Below, in pieces: positions 10,409-41,297 of a DNA stretch of 41,297 bases. Source of the DNA: Acinetobacter phage APK86. The stretch is taken from sequence record MZ936314.1; one strand, 5' to 3'. Within the stretch, counting starts at the first letter, position 1. Each line of letters opens with the position of its first letter. The position numbers and the translations under genes are program-made. The notes beneath the pieces were generated by a model that saw only the letters and a program-made list of their open reading frames with translations, did not search any database and was not told the origin of the DNA.

Positions 10409-10520
10409 ATGGTGGAATGCTCTTGAAGGTTGGCAACAAACACTACTGTTTATATCTATAGTACTGTTCCTAATTAGTCGTTAATTGGGTATTGTAAGTA
10501 ACTGATTTAGTAATTAGTTA

Positions 10521-10543
10521 TTTGAAGTTACACTAATAGAAGG
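10521..10543 (+). promoter_or_regulatory. Putative phage RNA-polymerase promoter (TTTGAAGTTACACTAATAGAAGG)
   Basis: A 23-nt motif with 22 of 23 matches to the four identical copies downstream of the RNA polymerase gene. It ends in ...ATAGAAGGAGA, reminiscent of T7-type promoters (...TATAGGGAGA). It lies in an AT-rich intergenic island about 115 nt upstream of the DNA polymerase gene. Confidence 0.5.
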
Positions 10544-10657
10544 AGATATAAATATGATATTAAATATTATAAATATAACTATAATAATATACATAAGTAA
10601 TATTATAGTATTCTTATTTATACTTCTTCTTATAAATATACTTAAAGGTAGATATGC

Positions 10658-16437: not shown

Positions 16438-17373
16438 ATGTCTAAAGTAGTATTCAGCAGTTTAAAAGAATGGAAACAACGTGCCCTTCGTATGCACTTT
16501 CAAGGTCTAACTAGCTCAGAGATTTCTACAGAGTTAGGTATTTCTGATCGAACTATTCGCGATAATATCCAGAAGTTAGCTCATCGTGTTGACAAGAGTG
16601 TAGCATTGAAGCCACGTAAGCCTACAATCTTTGTAATTGGTGATACTCAGGTTAAACAAGGTATTAGTCTTGACTATATCCACTGGATTGCAAACTATAT
16701 CAAACTTAAACAACCTGACATTATTGTACAGATTGGTGATCACTACGATATGGCATCGTTAAGCACATATGATAAAGGGCAACTTAGTGCAGAAGGTCGT
16801 CGATTCGTATTAGATATTGAGGCAGGTGATGAAGCACTAGGCATTATTGAAGATTATATCCGATCTGTTAAAGGTTATAACCCACGTAAGGTTGTGGTGT
16901 TAGGTAATCATGAAGATCGTATTGATCGTTTTGTTAAGACTCATCCAGAGTTTGAAGGTCTGATTGGTACAGATAAATTAGCCTTTCACGATTATGGTTG
17001 GGAAGTTATCCCGTTCTTAAAACCACATAACATTTGTGGTATCCACTTTGTACACTACGTGATTAACGTGAACACGGGTAAGCCACTAGGCGGTAATCTT
17101 GATCTACGTCTTAAGACAGTTGGTGAATCTTTCGTAATGGGACATCAACAAATGTATGCTTATGCAGAACGTCAATTACCTATGACAGGTCGTAAGCAGT
17201 TTGCAGCAGTGGTTGGTGCATGTTATGTACATGATGAACCTTATAAAGGTTGGCAAGGTAATCACCACTTCCGAGGCTGTTTAATGCTGTATGGTTGTGC
17301 TGATGGTTATGCTATGCAGAAGAAAGTTGAACTTGAACATATGCGCGAAATTTACGAAGGAGAGCATGCTTAA
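16438..17373 (+). CDS. Helix-turn-helix domain fused to a calcineurin-like metallophosphoesterase
   Basis: N-terminal LTSSEISTELGISDRTIRDNIQ (sigma region 4/LuxR-like HTH). Metallophosphatase motifs follow: GDTQ, GDHYD, GNHE. Confidence 0.65.
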   Translation: MSKVVFSSLKEWKQRALRMHFQGLTSSEISTELGISDRTIRDNIQKLAHRVDKSVALKPRKPTIFVIGDTQVKQGISLDYIHWIANYIKLKQPDIIVQIGDHYDMASLSTYDKGQLSAEGRRFVLDIEAGDEALGIIEDYIRSVKGYNPRKVVVLGNHEDRIDRFVKTHPEFEGLIGTDKLAFHDYGWEVIPFLKPHNICGIHFVHYVINVNTGKPLGGNLDLRLKTVGESFVMGHQQMYAYAERQLPMTGRKQFAAVVGACYVHDEPYKGWQGNHHFRGCLMLYGCADGYAMQKKVELEHMREIYEGEHA

Positions 17374-18023
17374 TGAGTTATAAAGTCGGGTTAATTGGAC
17401 TTGCTGGGGCAGGTAAAGATACAGTAGCAGTTATCTTACAAGAGGCTTTAAAAGAAAGAGGTCAAGTGTTTGAAATTGATCGTTACGCAGGATTACTTAA
17501 GGAAACGGCGAAAGCTGTCTTCGGAGATAACTTTGATGATCGTGATGTGAAAGAAGTTATGGTCCCATTTAACGATAAACTCAAACGTAAGGCTAGTTAC
17601 GAACTATTATACCTTAGTGGGAAACTGAATCTTAATGTAATGCAGTGTTCCTTATATGCGGACTTATGCTTAGAACACTTTGCACACTTAGACGAAATTA
17701 GTCCTCGCCTATTCCAACAACTATTAGGTACAGAAGTAGGGCGTGCTATTGATCCTGATATTTGGGTTAATTATCTTAAGAATCAAGACCGTAACCTAAT
17801 CATCCCTGATGTTCGTTTTGGTAATGAAGATGTGGACTTCAATATTCTAATTACCCGACACCCTGTACCAAAAGGTAAACTACATGCATCTGAGGTATTC
17901 GCTGCTGAATTACAGCTATCTGATAACCCTTATGATTACGTAGATTATGTAATTCATAATGATGGTTCTATTGAAGACCTCAAACGTAAAGTTCAACAGT
18001 TAGTAAACAAAATTAAAGTTTAG
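17373..18023 (+). CDS. P-loop kinase, deoxynucleoside monophosphate kinase-like
   Basis: Walker A motif GLIGLAGAGKDT, of the T4 gp1 dNMP kinase type. 216 aa. Confidence 0.55.
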   Translation: MSYKVGLIGLAGAGKDTVAVILQEALKERGQVFEIDRYAGLLKETAKAVFGDNFDDRDVKEVMVPFNDKLKRKASYELLYLSGKLNLNVMQCSLYADLCLEHFAHLDEISPRLFQQLLGTEVGRAIDPDIWVNYLKNQDRNLIIPDVRFGNEDVDFNILITRHPVPKGKLHASEVFAAELQLSDNPYDYVDYVIHNDGSIEDLKRKVQQLVNKIKV

Positions 18024-18031
18024 GAGATATA

Positions 18032-20449
18032 ATGTCTGATCTATACCAACGCCAAGTAGCTCTTGAAGAATCATACAGTCACGATAGTATCATTGCTGGT
18101 CAGAAGCAAGTACTAGATGCATATCAGCAAGGACGTGCTGCGGACGTAGGTACAGGTCGTATCCTATTAGCTAAAGCCTTTGAAGTTGGTGTAGAAGCTT
18201 TAAATGCAGCTAAGAAACAAAAGATTCGCGGTATTGGCGGGAAATACTTAAAATTACTTTCTATCGCTGATCCCGAAGTTTTAGTAATGGCTGCATTACG
18301 TGATATTATTAATGCATGTGCTGTACCTGAACCAGTGTCTATGCAGAAAGTACTTACGGGTATTGGTCGTATGATTGAGTCAGAATCTATGTTGGTATTT
18401 ATGCAAGAGTTAAACCCTGCATATACTGACAAGACTATCCAGTATTTAGACAACACAGGTACAAAATCAGTTACCCACCGTTATCGTACATTCTTAGCAG
18501 GTTCTAAGTCTATTCAACTAGATTGGGAACAGTGGTCACAAGAGGAGCGTATAGGTGTAGCTAAGTTGTTGGTAAGTTGTTTATATGACGCTACAGGATT
18601 ATTCCAATGGGCTAAACTGGATAGCGGTATGTATCACATTAAAGCTTCTGAACCCTTAGCGAAACACTTTCAGGATGCAGCGAGTGCAGCGAGAGCAGTT
18701 GTTAAATACCCTCCTATGTTGATCAAACCTATGGATTGGGAAGGACAGTATAACGGTGGGTATTTAACTGAATGGTTTAAACATAACTCACCTATGTGTG
18801 GTATTCGCTTTATTAAGAAAGAGCACAAGCATTGGGTTATTGATAACTTAAACAATGGTGCAGAGCTAGTTAAGGCTGCAATGAATAAAGCACAGTCTGT
18901 ACCTTACAGGATCAATAAAGACATCTTAGCAATCTTACGTAAAGCAGTTGCTATGCGTGTAGGTATTTTAGGTTTACCAAGTTATCAACCTGCACCTAAA
19001 CCTGCATTTCCGTTTACTGAGGATTGGTTAAAGTCCGAGGCTACTCAGGAAGAATTAGATCAATTCCAATTCTGGAAAGGTTTAATGAGTTCATGGTATA
19101 CACAAGAAGCTAAACGTGTTGGTCGACAACACGGTATCTTAAGTCGTATTCAAGAACTGGTTAAATATCAGGACGAAGAACGTTTGTACTTTCCAACGTT
19201 TATTGATTGGCGAGGTCGTCTTTACTTCCGTAGTAGTATTAACCCACAATCGAATGATTGTATTAAAGGTTGTCTTGAGTTTGCAGAGGGTAAACCTCTC
19301 GGTAAAACAGGACTTAAATGGTTAAAGATTCATGTTGCAAACTGCTGTGGTTATGATAAACATGATCCTGATTTAAAGGAGAAATGGTGCGATGACAACT
19401 GGAACTACATTCAGAATTTTATCAATAACCCCCTTGATGTTGATGCCCCCGAACCTGACACAGCATTTACGCTACTACAAGCAGGCTTGGCATTACAATC
19501 TGCGTTGGAACTGGAAGACCCTACGACCTACGTATGTCATGTCCCTGTCGCTATGGATGCAACTTGTTCAGGTCTTCAACACTTATCTGCGCTCACTAGA
19601 GACGAAGTAGGTGGACTTTACACGAACTTATTAGACAACGGTGAAGACCAGAAGTCTGATATTTATATGCGTGTAGCGCACATAGCAGATGAGTCTAAAC
19701 TAGAATTAGCTGATTCTCCTGCTGTACGTCAGTATTGGGTGGATAAACCCATTAGTCGTAATATGGCGAAGAAACCTGTGATGACTTACGTATACGGTTC
19801 GAAGTTATTATCAACTATTCAAGGCTTAGCTAATGATATGTATGAAGCAGGTATGGATGAGATTCAGTTAGATGGTAAGACAGTCTTTACTTACAACCGA
19901 TTAGCTAAACCAGTTGGTAAGGCATTACGTAAAGGTGTCGAAGATACTGTACCTAAATCTGCTGAGATGATGAACTACTTGCAGAACGTTGTACGTAAAA
20001 ATAAAGCTGATGCTATGCGTTGGTTTAGTCCAGTAGGTGTTCCTGTTGTGAATTGGGCAGAAGGTATGGTGACTAAACTTGTAGCAATTCGTTCGATGGG
20101 AATCTCCAGAATTGCTTATAATTATCCAGATAACCAATATAATACCTTAAGAGCAGCTAACGGTATTGTACCTAACTTTGTACATAGTATGGATAGCAGT
20201 CACTTATGTTTAACTATCTTAGATTTCGATGGTCAAGTTCTACCAATTCACGACTCATTCGCAACCCATCCTAGTGATGTGGAAGCTATGCATGTGTCAT
20301 TACGTAAGACATTCATTGAAATGTATACACAATTCAGTATTGAAGACTTCTTAAAGTTTAACAATATTGATATTGAAGAGTACACACCACCACTTACAGG
20401 TAACTTAGAGTTATCGGAAATTTCTAAATCCCGTTATATGTTTGGTTAA
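18032..20449 (+). CDS. T7-like single-subunit DNA-dependent RNA polymerase
   Basis: Motifs DWRGRLYF, MDATCSGLQH and HDSFATH correspond to the T7 RNA polymerase motifs DWRGRVY, DGSCSGIQH and HDSFGT. 805 aa. Its position at the end of the replication block is phiKMV-like. Confidence 0.9.
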   Translation: MSDLYQRQVALEESYSHDSIIAGQKQVLDAYQQGRAADVGTGRILLAKAFEVGVEALNAAKKQKIRGIGGKYLKLLSIADPEVLVMAALRDIINACAVPEPVSMQKVLTGIGRMIESESMLVFMQELNPAYTDKTIQYLDNTGTKSVTHRYRTFLAGSKSIQLDWEQWSQEERIGVAKLLVSCLYDATGLFQWAKLDSGMYHIKASEPLAKHFQDAASAARAVVKYPPMLIKPMDWEGQYNGGYLTEWFKHNSPMCGIRFIKKEHKHWVIDNLNNGAELVKAAMNKAQSVPYRINKDILAILRKAVAMRVGILGLPSYQPAPKPAFPFTEDWLKSEATQEELDQFQFWKGLMSSWYTQEAKRVGRQHGILSRIQELVKYQDEERLYFPTFIDWRGRLYFRSSINPQSNDCIKGCLEFAEGKPLGKTGLKWLKIHVANCCGYDKHDPDLKEKWCDDNWNYIQNFINNPLDVDAPEPDTAFTLLQAGLALQSALELEDPTTYVCHVPVAMDATCSGLQHLSALTRDEVGGLYTNLLDNGEDQKSDIYMRVAHIADESKLELADSPAVRQYWVDKPISRNMAKKPVMTYVYGSKLLSTIQGLANDMYEAGMDEIQLDGKTVFTYNRLAKPVGKALRKGVEDTVPKSAEMMNYLQNVVRKNKADAMRWFSPVGVPVVNWAEGMVTKLVAIRSMGISRIAYNYPDNQYNTLRAANGIVPNFVHSMDSSHLCLTILDFDGQVLPIHDSFATHPSDVEAMHVSLRKTFIEMYTQFSIEDFLKFNNIDIEEYTPPLTGNLELSEISKSRYMFG

Positions 20450-20455
20450 TACTAA

Positions 20456-20498
20456 GCCCATGTGCCTTGAGCATGTGGGCTTTTTTTTTTTTTTTTTT
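20456..20498 (+). terminator. Rho-independent terminator after the RNA polymerase gene
   Basis: 10-bp stem GCCCATGTGC/GCATGTGGGC with loop CTTGA, followed by an 18-T run. Confidence 0.8.
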
Positions 20499-20518
20499 GA
20501 AGTTACACTTATAGAAGG
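20496..20518 (+). promoter_or_regulatory. Putative phage promoter, copy 1 of a tandem pair (TTTGAAGTTACACTTATAGAAGG)
   Basis: A 23-nt motif repeated 34 bp downstream and again at +439 bp. It immediately follows the terminator T-run. Confidence 0.5.
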
Positions 20519-20529
20519 GAAGAACCTTA

Positions 20530-20552
20530 TTTGAAGTTACACTTATAGAAGG
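20530..20552 (+). promoter_or_regulatory. Putative phage promoter, copy 2 of a tandem pair
   Basis: Identical 23-mer. It ends ...AGAAGGAGAGAAGGAATG, which overlaps the ribosome-binding site of the 65-aa ORF. Confidence 0.5.
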
Positions 20553-20561
20553 AGAGAAGGA

Positions 20562-20759
20562 ATGAGTGCAAGAGACATTCCATTATTCACTCAAGAGCAA
20601 TATGATTACTTAGATAAGTATTGTTTTGCAGAGAATACAGAACTACTTACACCAGAGGAATTAATCTATAAAACTGGTCAACGTAGTGTAATGTATAAGA
20701 TACAAACATTAATTAACCAACAAGGTCCTACATTGGTCCGTAATAATACATTCATTTAA
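20562..20759 (+). CDS. Small protein (65 aa), duplicated copy A. Its C-terminus was altered by the duplication junction.
   Basis: Identical to 21001..21198 for the first 60 residues, then NNTFI* versus KEIKR*. Confidence 0.45.
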   Translation: MSARDIPLFTQEQYDYLDKYCFAENTELLTPEELIYKTGQRSVMYKIQTLINQQGPTLVRNNTFI

Positions 20760-20934
20760 ATGTATAAACAATTTAGTATTTAAGATTTTTTAAAATTTAA
20801 AAATATTAAAATTAAAAAATAAACACCACCAATTATATGTAAATTAAATTTATTGGAAATTTTTAAATCCCTTTATATTTTTTGTTAATAATAAGCCCAT
20901 GTGTTTTGAGTATTTTGGTTTTTTTTTTTTTTTT

Positions 20935-20957
20935 TTTGAAGTTACACTTATAGAAGG
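20935..20957 (+). promoter_or_regulatory. Putative phage promoter (duplicate of 20496..20518)
   Basis: Identical 23-mer. Confidence 0.45.
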
Positions 20958-20968
20958 GAAGAACCTTA

Positions 20969-20991
20969 TTTGAAGTTACACTTATAGAAGG
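20969..20991 (+). promoter_or_regulatory. Putative phage promoter (duplicate of 20530..20552)
   Basis: Identical 23-mer. Confidence 0.45.
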
Positions 20992-21000
20992 AGAGAAGGA

Positions 21001-21198
21001 ATGAGTGCAAGAGACATTCCATTATTCACTCAAGAGCAATATGATTACTTAGATAAGTATTGTTTTGCAGAGAATACAGAACTACTTACACCAGAGGAAT
21101 TAATCTATAAAACTGGTCAACGTAGTGTAATGTATAAGATACAAACATTAATTAACCAACAAGGTCCTACATTGGTCCGTAAGGAGATTAAACGATGA
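21001..21198 (+). CDS. Small protein (65 aa), copy B, probably the ancestral copy
   Basis: ATGA overlap with the downstream gene at 21195. Confidence 0.55.
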   Translation: MSARDIPLFTQEQYDYLDKYCFAENTELLTPEELIYKTGQRSVMYKIQTLINQQGPTLVRKEIKR

Positions 21199-21446
21199 GC
21201 TGGTTAAGTAAGGCTTTAGGTAGTGTTATGAGTATATTTGGTATTGGTGGACAAGATGACCTCGGAAAGAAGTATGAGGAAGAAATGCGTCGTCAAGCAG
21301 AAGCTCAGAAACTACAACAAGCTAACGAACAGAAAGAAGTAACACAATTTGATGATACAGGAGGTACTACCTTCACAGGTGCAGATGGTCCTCGTAAGAA
21401 ACGACCTACAGGTGGTTATTCAAGCTTAGGGATTAATGCTTATTAG
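21195..21446 (+). CDS. Hypothetical protein (83 aa), first gene of the late region
   Basis: Translationally coupled ORF. Confidence 0.5.
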   Translation: MSWLSKALGSVMSIFGIGGQDDLGKKYEEEMRRQAEAQKLQQANEQKEVTQFDDTGGTTFTGADGPRKKRPTGGYSSLGINAY

Positions 21447-21454
21447 GAGGTTTT

Positions 21455-23011
21455 ATGAAGTCCAAAGGAAATGATTTTACAAAGACTATTCGAGCTTTGT
21501 ATGATGAATACACGGACGATTCTTTAAAAACAAGATTAGAAATGTATGCACTTTGGACTCTACCTAGCGTGTTCCCGACAGGTGAGATTACGGTAGATAA
21601 TGGAAATGCTGAGATTGAGCATGACTACCAAAGTGTAGGTGCATATCTAGTGAATCGGTTAGCGTCGCGTTTAGCGAGTACGTTATTTCCCGTAAGCACA
21701 TCTTTCTTTAGAATCGAACCTAGTCAAGAGTTGAAAGACTTAGTTGATAAACGTGGTACGAGTACCCTTATCGACTTAGAGAACAAAGCTTGTCGTCGTT
21801 TATTCTTTAACGCATCTTATGCGCAGATTGTGCAAGCACTGCGTTTACTTATTATCACTGGTGAAGTTTTATTACTTCGTAGAGATAATCGCCTACGTGT
21901 TTTTAGTTTAAAGAATTATGCGTTATTACGCAACAATGTAGGAGAAGTACTTGAGATCATCACACGAGAACCTAAACGTTATCGGGAATTAGATGCTGAA
22001 ACTCAGGAACTACTACAAGATCGTAACGAGGACGAGACCCTTGATCTTTATACTAGAATCCGTAAGCGTAATATCAATGGGGTAATCTCATGGAAGATTA
22101 CACAAGAAATAGATGGTGTACGTTTACCAAACTATGAAATCTATCGAGATAAGCTATGCCCATATATTCCTGTAACATGGAGTTATATGAATGGTGATGC
22201 TTATGGTCGTGGTTACGTAGAAGAGTACGCAGGTGACTTTGCTAAGTTATCTGAACTCTCACAAGGTTTAACAGAGTACCAGATTGAATCATTAATTATC
22301 CGTCATGTGTATAATGCACAGGGTGGTTTTGATGTAGAATCTGCTGTGAACTCACGTAACGGTGATTGGATTAGTGGTAACGTTAATGCTGTACAGAACT
22401 ATGAATCTGGATCATTCCAAAAGATGAATGAGATTCGGTTAGGTTTAGAAGCTATTATGCAACGTCTAAACGTAGCGTTCATGTACACAGGTAATATGCG
22501 AGAAGGTGATCGTGTCACAGCCTACGAGATTGCCCGTAATGCTGATGAAGCAGAGCAAGTTCTTGGTGGTGTGTACTCGCAACTATCTCAGAATATGCAT
22601 TTACCTTTAGCATATCTATTACTATATGAAGTTCGTAAAGACTTTATTCAGGCGATTGATAGACAAGAGATCGAATTAAATATTCTAACTGGTTTACAAG
22701 CATTATCACGTAGTTCAGAGAACCAAGCTTTATTAGTAGCAGCGAATGAGATTGCTACAGTTGCCCAAGTATTCTCACAAGTAAGTAAACGATTTAATCT
22801 TGATGCTATTGTAGACAAGATTCTACTTTCTAATGGTATTGATATTTCAGAGATTACATACAGTGAAGAAGAAATGAGAGCTAAGGCTATGGAAGAACAA
22901 CGTGCAGCAGAGGCACAGCGACAACAAGTAATACAACAAGCTGGCGCACAGTTAGGTGGTAATCAATTAGAAAATACACAGGCTGCTCAATTGGCAGCAG
23001 GTATTCAATAG
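21455..23011 (+). CDS. Portal (head-tail connector) protein
   Basis: 518 aa, in the first large position of the late region. The size and position match the T7 gp8 equivalent. AGGAGG ribosome-binding site. Confidence 0.7.
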   Translation: MKSKGNDFTKTIRALYDEYTDDSLKTRLEMYALWTLPSVFPTGEITVDNGNAEIEHDYQSVGAYLVNRLASRLASTLFPVSTSFFRIEPSQELKDLVDKRGTSTLIDLENKACRRLFFNASYAQIVQALRLLIITGEVLLLRRDNRLRVFSLKNYALLRNNVGEVLEIITREPKRYRELDAETQELLQDRNEDETLDLYTRIRKRNINGVISWKITQEIDGVRLPNYEIYRDKLCPYIPVTWSYMNGDAYGRGYVEEYAGDFAKLSELSQGLTEYQIESLIIRHVYNAQGGFDVESAVNSRNGDWISGNVNAVQNYESGSFQKMNEIRLGLEAIMQRLNVAFMYTGNMREGDRVTAYEIARNADEAEQVLGGVYSQLSQNMHLPLAYLLLYEVRKDFIQAIDRQEIELNILTGLQALSRSSENQALLVAANEIATVAQVFSQVSKRFNLDAIVDKILLSNGIDISEITYSEEEMRAKAMEEQRAAEAQRQQVIQQAGAQLGGNQLENTQAAQLAAGIQ

Positions 23012-40914: not shown

Positions 40915-41297
40915 TCTCCCACCTAACCCGCCCCGCTTACCCCGTGTACCACCTCTACAGAGGAATTTCTAGGAACTCTCTTATCGAGAGTCCTTATCAT
41001 CCTTCCTCATCTTATAGTATGGGTAGTTCAGACCTACATATAGTAGTATGAAGAACAGTATCAATAGTACTATGAGTATTACATTCATAACGGTATTCCT
41101 TATCAACCTTATGGAATGCATCTTATCAATTATCTTATCAGTTGTCTACACCTTTCTTAATATATTTATATATAACGTCACTCTTCGAGTGTACAGTGCT
41201 AGGAATATCACTTAGCAGTACTTATCAACTACACTTATCAACATATATAGGAAGGTTCTAGGTTCTTTCTCTGAGCGTCTGTATTGGTTCGGTAGCT
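40915..41297. repeat. Right direct terminal repeat (identical to 1..383)
   Basis: Exact 383-bp identity with the left end. Confidence 0.9.

Follow-up and report, generated by a model that had tools for sequence, protein, structure and literature searches.

The window analyzed here is the complete, linear genome of Acinetobacter phage APK86 (record MZ936314.1; 41,297 bp, GC content 39.2%), a phiAB1-like Friunavirus belonging to the Autographiviridae/Beijerinckvirinae, and the genes and elements of the locus described below all lie on its + strand. The gene encoding the T7-like single-subunit RNA polymerase (18032..20449; 805 amino acids; stop codon at 20447–20449) was recognized from the list of open reading frames (ORFs) and from the RNA polymerase annotation present in all the relatives, the products of which show PF00940 matches. 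The end of this gene is included in a tandem array extending from 20305 to 21182, to which Tandem Repeats Finder assigned a period of 439, 2.0 copies, 92% matches and 0% indels (insertions or deletions), and which is the only long-period array reported by this program for the genome. Self-BLAST paired 20305–20743 with 20744–21182, and an independent repeat search gave the same result. According to Tandem Repeats Finder and self-BLAST, the two units are head-to-tail direct copies with nothing between them. Unit A (20305..20743) is the copy in the ancestral state and includes the last 145 nt of the polymerase gene, the terminator, two promoter 20-mers and a 65-amino acid ORF, while unit B (20744..21182), which was delimited in addition by a comparison at offset 439, has a derived left part. 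The duplication of two 439-bp units described in an earlier note on this sequence, as well as the content attributed there to unit A, were therefore borne out, and its limits can now be given exactly.

The two units differ by 33 substitutions and no indels, and all the differences are confined to 176 bp (20308–20480 in the coordinates of unit A): 33 were counted in this left part and none in the 263 bp of the right part. They run from 3 nt past the junction to the last base before the T-run of the terminator. The hypermutated tract in unit B (20744..20919) is a relic of the 3' end of the polymerase gene and of the stem of its terminator. The left part of unit A differs from six outgroup genomes at only 1–2 of the 176 positions, and since these six genomes carry the unit A base at all 33 changed positions, unit B is the derived copy in every case. 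The earlier note had counted roughly four dozen changes in about 195 bp, a figure which the recount does not uphold. On the other hand, the identity of some 245 bp between the units, which was also reported there, was confirmed: the 245 bp following the T-run are 100% identical, and with the T-run included, the identical block amounts to 263 bp containing 82 G/C sites and no differences.

The substitutions consist of G>T (10), C>T (10), C>A (6), G>A (6), and T>A (1). The GC-to-AT direction which the earlier note had called strict therefore holds as a bias, 32 of the 33 changes replacing G/C by A/T, but not as a strict rule, since there is one T>A change. The changes affected 32 of the 60 G/C sites and only 1 of the 116 A/T sites (Fisher p = 2e-17). 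The proportion of sites changed is the same for G and C (16/30 each), transitions and transversions are equally frequent among the G/C changes (16:16), and the GC content of the relic fell from 34.1 to 15.9%. The changes depend on the context: isolated G/C sites were changed more often (23/32) than clustered ones (9/28; p = 0.004), and the replacement base is identical to the adjacent A/T base at 15 of the 19 informative sites (p = 0.0096), i.e., those where the flanking A/T bases permit one choice only. It is also the local A/T majority base at 18 of 24 sites and the 5' neighbor in 21 of the 33 changes. Along the tract, the replacement bases form nine runs (permutation p = 0.0035), TTATTTT-AAAAAAAAA-TT-AA-TTTTTT-A-TTTTTT. 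No gradient was observed, the proportions of G/C sites changed along the tract being 60, 60, and 44%, and the G/C sites located just before the junction are unchanged. The process is thus G/C-specific, context-dependent and homopolymer-lengthening, and leaves no indels.

Unit A carries an intact intrinsic terminator (20454..20498) consisting of a 12-bp stem, a 5-nt loop and a T18 run (20481–20498), which was also found by a terminator scan and the RNA of which folds at −18.4 kcal/mol (z −5.6). The corresponding terminator in unit B (20893..20937) is destroyed: the stem is gone and the T-run is kept as T19, i.e., T18 plus one C>T change. The RNA of this relic folds at −1.7 kcal/mol (z +0.4), 123 of 200 shuffled sequences fold as well, and no call was made there by the terminator scan. 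The combination of stem-loop and U-run characteristic of intrinsic terminators is therefore present in unit A and absent from the relic, which agrees with the unpaired stem and persistent T-run described in the earlier note. The T-runs of the array are the only homopolymers of at least 10 nt in the genome. Each unit then carries a pair of promoters for the phage RNA polymerase, located at 20499..20552 in unit A (20-mers 20499–20518 and 20533–20552, exact matches) and at 20938..20991 in unit B (20-mers 20938–20957 and 20972–20991). Five copies of the promoter 20-mer, GAAGTTACACTTATAGAAGG, are present in the genome (0 expected by chance), four of them in the array and one at 10524, and the phiAB1 and AS12 records annotate the same elements as terminator and phage promoters. 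The fifth copy (10518–10546) shows one mismatch in the 20-mer and a 29-nt similarity to the array promoters; it lies upstream of the DNA polymerase region, and phiAB1, APK87, and APK2 have it at the corresponding position. The AT-rich relic gave three weak matches to host-type promoters, all on the minus strand and below the number obtained in shuffled sequences, and the idea that the hypermutation might have formed a new host-type promoter was rejected on these grounds.

The 65-amino acid ORF is present in both units. Copy B (21001..21198) has the ancestral form ending in ...VRKEIKR and was assigned to phrog_5394 (E = 1.5e-40), and the overlap between its stop codon and the start of the next gene (ATGA) has been kept. 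This next gene, the first one past the array (21195..21446), encodes 83 amino acids, belongs to phrog_4893 and is annotated as a structural protein in phiAB1; both ORFs are members of conserved phage families. Copy A (20562..20759), which was delimited from the ORF list and the sequence, has a chimeric C-terminus ending in ...VRNNTFI, as previously noted. Its TAA stop, five codons past the joint, was created by the G>T change at 20757 (GAA to TAA), without which this copy would be in frame with the last ~47 codons of the polymerase gene. The duplication gives the late-gene region four consecutive phage promoters where there had been two. No functional terminator separates the two pairs, and the small ORF occurs in two copies, the first of which is shortened by a stop codon made by the hypermutation.

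The hexamer CGTAAG occurs at both parental breakpoints, in the Arg-Lys codons of the RNA polymerase gene (left parental copy, 20303..20308) and in those of the 65-amino acid ORF (right parental copy, 21178..21183), and the codon phase is the same in both cases. The earlier note had reported a CGTAA microhomology, which is indeed present and is one base longer than stated, but a simple switch between the two copies would have given a period of 436 and not 439. Ungapped comparison at offset 439 places the junction, CGTAA-TAA-TAC, at 20739..20749. The joint either contains three bases more (a TAA/AAT triplet) than a clean microhomology switch would leave or is a blunt joint. The mutated tract starts at most 3 nt from this junction and ends at the T-run, which links the hypermutation either with the duplication as such or with an artefact, rather than with later evolution. 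One arm (20726–20751) of an inverted repeat of 26 nt with 85% complementarity lies across the junction, and the other, on the right, in the portal gene (21918–21943); the matching arm at the end of unit B (21165–21182) pairs over 18 nt only, and this inverted repeat is probably due to chance.

The ancestral state in the relatives is a single copy. The 3,001-bp query spans ~2,550–2,600 bp in the relatives among the matches listed, which corresponds to one unit, and a query spanning the junction matched ~156 records over its first 44 nt only, i.e., over the normal end of the ORF. The 3' end of this ORF was found in two places in just one of these ~156 records, that of PBAB08 (MG366114.1), which is marked UNVERIFIED and has a scrambled ORF. 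PBAB08 was rejected as a case of similar duplication, since the second match is an unrelated scrambled region. At 2380–2500 of the compared stretch, the small ORF of PBAB08 is replaced by unrelated sequence. In another record, ON531987.1, the RNA polymerase and portal genes are broken into fragments, and this record, like that of PBAB08, looks low in quality. The protein encoded by ORF copy B is identical in many Friunavirus genomes and occurs as a single copy in 10 of 10 places among the matches listed. Neither the relic pattern nor the patterns of the mutated and unmutated junctions had any exact match in the viral, metagenome, and genome contig collections, and neither the chimeric protein of ORF copy A nor the polymerase of APK86 itself has an entry in an index covering 153 billion gene positions. 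No similar event combining duplication and hypermutation was found elsewhere in the APK86 genome or in five whole relatives, and a literature search on Friunavirus duplications and on GC-to-AT hypermutation in phages yielded nothing specific. The closest genomes in the phage collection show 92–95% identity to APK86, and coverage of the right half of the genome reaches 99% in one record only, that of APK87, the tailspike of which is nearly the same as that of APK86 (PMC10219094). Judging from these comparisons, the duplication appears to be private to APK86, and its absence from ~156 relatives indicates that it is recent rather than old; the comparison with related genomes suggested in the earlier note thus points to a strain-specific event.

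The relatives nevertheless show variations at this site. Among the records examined, the length of the T-run varies between 8 and 28 nt. AB_SZL2 (PP965502.1; 1280–1405 of the compared stretch) has a T28 run, three promoter units and a G>A change in the terminator stem, and Abgy2021-6-2 (OR770644.1; 1280–1370 of the compared stretch) has a T20 run and a second run, T13, between the promoters. In view of these variations in T-run length and promoter copy number, the intergenic site appears to be slippage-prone. In AB_SZL2 as in APK86, the phage promoter has been multiplied directly downstream of the polymerase terminator (three and four copies, respectively), but it is an intergenic 34-nt unit that has been triplicated in AB_SZL2, without any duplicated ORF, polymerase fragment or hypermutated tract. 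Tandem duplications mediated by microhomology, via slipped-strand mispairing or template switching, are known to occur in T7-like phages and bacteria. The APK86 array resembles them in its head-to-tail repeat, its 6-nt CGTAAG at the breakpoints, its restriction to a single strain and its slippage-prone site. It differs from them in its period and the 3 extra nt at the joint, and in that ordinary slippage duplications are free of one-directional changes, whereas 33 changes lie in the 176 nt beside the joint in APK86.

The background of mutation was defined as the substitutions private to APK86, polarized against five whole relative genomes. It amounts to 351 changes, among which the per-site rates of GC>AT and AT>GC are equal (0.98% each), the GC>AT to AT>GC counts being 121:192 and the ratio of transitions to transversions (Ts:Tv) 265:86. 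The relic departs from this background in direction (32:0 vs. 121:192; p = 7e-13) as well as in Ts:Tv (16:16 vs. 265:86; p = 0.0017). Any other 176-bp stretch contains at most eight private GC>AT changes, and an ordinary diverged pair of paralogs in phiAB1 gave 8:8:7. The densest private cluster outside the relic was found at 17441–17700, where ~22–23 changes per 176 bp show a mixed spectrum including 5–8 GC>AT changes. This cluster lies in a 216-amino acid ORF (17373–18023) corresponding by position and length to the deoxynucleoside monophosphate (dNMP) kinase gene of the relatives, and it resembles a mosaic patch left by recombination more than hypermutation.

The tract was compared with several known types of hypermutation. 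It shares with deaminase editing and repeat-induced point mutation (RIP) the dense directional loss of G/C within a tract, and with RIP also the duplicated state of the sequence. Cytosine-deaminase (APOBEC/DddA-like) hypermutation was rejected because 16 of the 32 G/C changes are transversions (G>T 10, C>A 6), and RIP, which affects both copies by C>T at CpA, because only unit B is mutated and transversions are present; the changes moreover show no dinucleotide motif requirement, and they occur in a bacteriophage. A diversity-generating retroelement was rejected since 32 of the 33 changed template positions are G or C and not adenine; no reverse transcriptase is annotated in the feature tables of the relatives, a scan of the APK86 proteins for the corresponding domain not having been made. 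Acquisition of the relic from an AT-richer homolog was rejected, as each of the 33 differences arose from the sequence of the phage itself and no further ones exist; the relic had no match in viral, metagenome, or genome contigs. Templating by a quasi-palindrome or an ectopic sequence was likewise rejected: the self-complementarity of the relic does not exceed that of shuffled sequences (z +0.78) and is below that of the ancestor (z −2.94), and no donor longer than 11 nt covering at least two relic changes was found genome-wide. A context-free random replacement of G/C is disfavored by the bias toward isolated sites and the copying of neighbors.

Imbalanced pools of deoxynucleoside triphosphates (dNTPs) combined with dislocation mutagenesis are known from retroviral G-to-A hypermutants and from "hypermutagenic polymerase chain reaction (PCR)." The APK86 changes resemble these cases in being dense, one-directional and neighbor-copying, with isolated targets preferred. 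They differ from them in that both G and C are hit, by transitions and transversions alike, within 176 bp of a double-stranded DNA (dsDNA) phage instead of genome-wide, and at a per-site frequency of 53%, which is far above the values reported. The rearrangement is of a known kind, and the hypermutation signature is unlike the families tested.

We give even chances to the possibility that the array is a real and very recent rearrangement resulting from one aberrant replication event in vivo, which may be present in a subpopulation only. The growing strand would have left its template at or near the CGTAAG located at the end of the 65-amino acid ORF and re-annealed ~436 nt upstream at the CGTAAG of the polymerase gene, with three extra bases at the joint. 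Copying would then have proceeded with very low fidelity and in a G/C-avoiding manner over 176 nt, as far as the T18 run of the terminator, about half of the G/C positions, mainly the isolated ones, receiving A or T, mostly the base of the neighbor, and normal copying would have been restored at the T-run. The avoidance of G/C might reflect misincorporation or transient misalignment ("dislocation") under a shortage of dGTP and dCTP. A shortage of both during the synthesis of one strand would account for the four substitution classes, the copying of neighbors and the protection of G/C clusters. We infer on this basis that the duplication and the hypermutation may have been one and the same event occurring at the level of the polymerase. 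Such pools can arise in bacteria infected by phages, where nucleotide-depleting defense systems (dCTP-deaminase/dGTPase) are at work (bioRxiv 10.1101/2021.04.26.441389).

Several points weigh against such an event. There are no indels in the 176 bp, although slippage-prone synthesis should leave some, and the period of 439 and the extra triplet are not those expected from a CGTAAG switch. Replacement of 53% of the G/C sites in a single pass is not known to us for any polymerase or condition, and the proofreading DNA polymerases of the T7-like type should stall instead. A perfect direct repeat of 263 bp should be quickly recombined away from a T7-like genome if it is neither under selection nor very new. 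SPAdes is able to thread a low-coverage loop into a contig, so that the variant could be rare. Lastly, all the evidence comes from a single record based on one short-read assembly: the genome was obtained with MiSeq from Nextera libraries and assembled using SPAdes 3.13 with its default parameters, and the Sanger check was limited to the physical termini, the duplication region not being mentioned in the study (PMC10219094).

Explanations differing as to the template, the time or the agent have to be weighed against this single replication event. With a small probability, the tract was left behind by DNA synthesis that used RNA as its template or that took place in a nucleotide-starved cell. 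In the former case, the nascent minus strand, having just copied the T-run, would slip, its oligo(dA) end moving to the U-tail of a terminated messenger RNA of the RNA polymerase gene, the 3' end of which lies exactly at the T-run; 176 nt of this RNA would be copied with very low fidelity, and the return to DNA at the CGTAAG of the small ORF would generate the tandem duplication. Both limits of the tract would thus be accounted for, one by the 3' end of the transcript and the other by the microhomology joint. In a weaker variant, the patch would have been made in a host whose dCTP and dGTP pools had been destroyed by a nucleotide-depletion defense. A slower origin was proposed in the earlier note, which invoked directional mutation pressure on a non-coding fragment, or selection or gene conversion on the promoter-ORF module. 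An older duplication, the non-coding half of which decayed under AT-biased pressure while the promoter-ORF half was held by selection or gene conversion, would be in keeping with the non-coding status of the relic and with its 15.9% GC, which is within the range for neutral sites under AT bias, and the loss of an internal terminator could be beneficial. This is nonetheless highly improbable: among the ~156 Friunavirus records, only the UNVERIFIED, scrambled one has a second ORF 3' end, decay to 16% GC should have been accompanied by ~15.6 AT>GC changes, none of which were found (P = 5e-8), the divergence at A/T sites (1/116) is just the background level of ~1%, there are no indels, Ts:Tv is 1:1 instead of the 3:1 of the background, and the mutated tract starts right at the junction. 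Neutral AT-biased decay, with or without gene conversion, was rejected on account of the background spectrum and the absence of AT>GC changes and indels, and the mismatch with the background, together with the absence of the duplication from the relatives, led us to reject slow mutation pressure. Since the duplication is apparently recent, neither selection nor gene conversion is needed to explain the identical half, which a de Bruijn assembler would also produce by copying a collapsed repeat. The earlier note was therefore right about the anatomy of the locus but not about its causes. We also consider it improbable that a real duplication had its tract hit by base damage, or by an enzyme acting at G:C pairs, with A inserted opposite the lesions, for example by oxidation plus deamination, or by a glycosylase generating abasic sites in exposed single-stranded DNA or in an R-loop behind the terminator. 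Changes to T would then stem from lesions on the + strand and changes to A from those on the − strand, which would be in line with the exclusive involvement of G and C and with the strand-like runs of new bases, although the runs are explained equally well by the local A/T-richness. The replacement of ~50% of the sites is typical of enzymatic hyperediting (APOBEC, ADAR) and not of polymerase error, and deamination and 8-oxoguanine are classically known to produce C>T and G>T changes together with their complements. To our knowledge, however, no enzyme hits both G and C while sparing A and T. In addition, lesions on two strands cannot be fixed in a single round of replication, damage would hardly be expected to end exactly at the duplication junction, and the protection of clustered G/C sites fits a constraint on polymerase extension better than base chemistry.

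It is also possible, although on the whole doubtful, that the phage has only one unit and that a rare chimeric and damaged library molecule, or a few aberrant reads, formed a loop in the SPAdes graph, this loop (repeat-relic-repeat) having been traversed once and the collapsed 263-bp repeat copied identically on either side. The sequencing and assembly procedure included no check of the internal regions, and the 263-bp identity and the equal T-runs (18; 18 plus one C>T) are what a collapsed node gives by construction, hence these two features carry little weight. The rearrangement is unique among the ~156 relatives and was not found in the other collections. The relic lies next to the sole long homopolymer of the genome and to a terminator inverted repeat containing GGC/GCC. 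Features of this kind trigger sequence-specific errors in Illumina data, in which the preceding base is copied in 49–61% of cases (PMC3141275). The APK86 tract resembles these errors in its location, its lack of indels and its neighbor copying (21 of the 33 new bases equal the 5' neighbor). It differs from them in that its changes are base-specific, show no directionality or gradient and form one coherent haplotype with a novel junction, which would have to be read consistently from both sides. Dephasing is blind to the base, yet 1 of 37 at-risk A/T sites changed, as compared with 16–20 of 42 G/C sites, and superposition of signals or dephasing after the homopolymer is accordingly disfavored, A/T being spared and no gradient being present. 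The perfect sequence moreover resumes abruptly on both sides, even right after T19. We know of no library PCR polymerase with an error rate of 19%. As the junction shares only 6 nt with either parent, it must have been physically present in the reads, and there is no sign of poor assembly in the remainder of the genome: the terminal repeats are perfect, and the neighboring ORFs checked (polymerase, portal, scaffold and capsid) are uninterrupted, with lengths matching those of the relatives. A DNA molecule having this sequence therefore probably existed in the sequenced sample; it may have been the majority genotype, a rare aberrant genome threaded by SPAdes as a loop, or a damaged chimeric library fragment.

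Elsewhere in the genome, perfect direct terminal repeats of 383 bp are present at 1–383 and 40915–41297, and the region just inside the left one (382–684) is dense in short tandem repeats with periods of 22–24, 11, 9, 8, and 5.

If the array proved to be an artefact, it would mean that a phage genome assembled with default SPAdes and described as "complete" can hold a spurious loop with a strongly non-random error signature beside a homopolymer. If the rearrangement is real, as under the single replication event set out above, it would be a case of a localized burst of hypermutation in a dsDNA phage, in which more than half of the G/C sites were replaced over 176 bp, with transitions as frequent as transversions, and which is bound to a duplication junction and the T-run of a terminator. 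Deaminases, RIP and diversity-generating retroelements do not fit this pattern, and mutagenesis by dNTP imbalance fits it only in part, which would point to an unrecognized mode of low-fidelity synthesis during template switching in T7-like replication. Were the tract to have resulted from RNA-templated synthesis or from synthesis in a nucleotide-starved cell, it would reflect a type of replication accident that has not been described in dsDNA phages. In either case, a real array with its four promoters and disabled terminator would provide a natural construct for studying promoter dosage and read-through at the early-to-late boundary.

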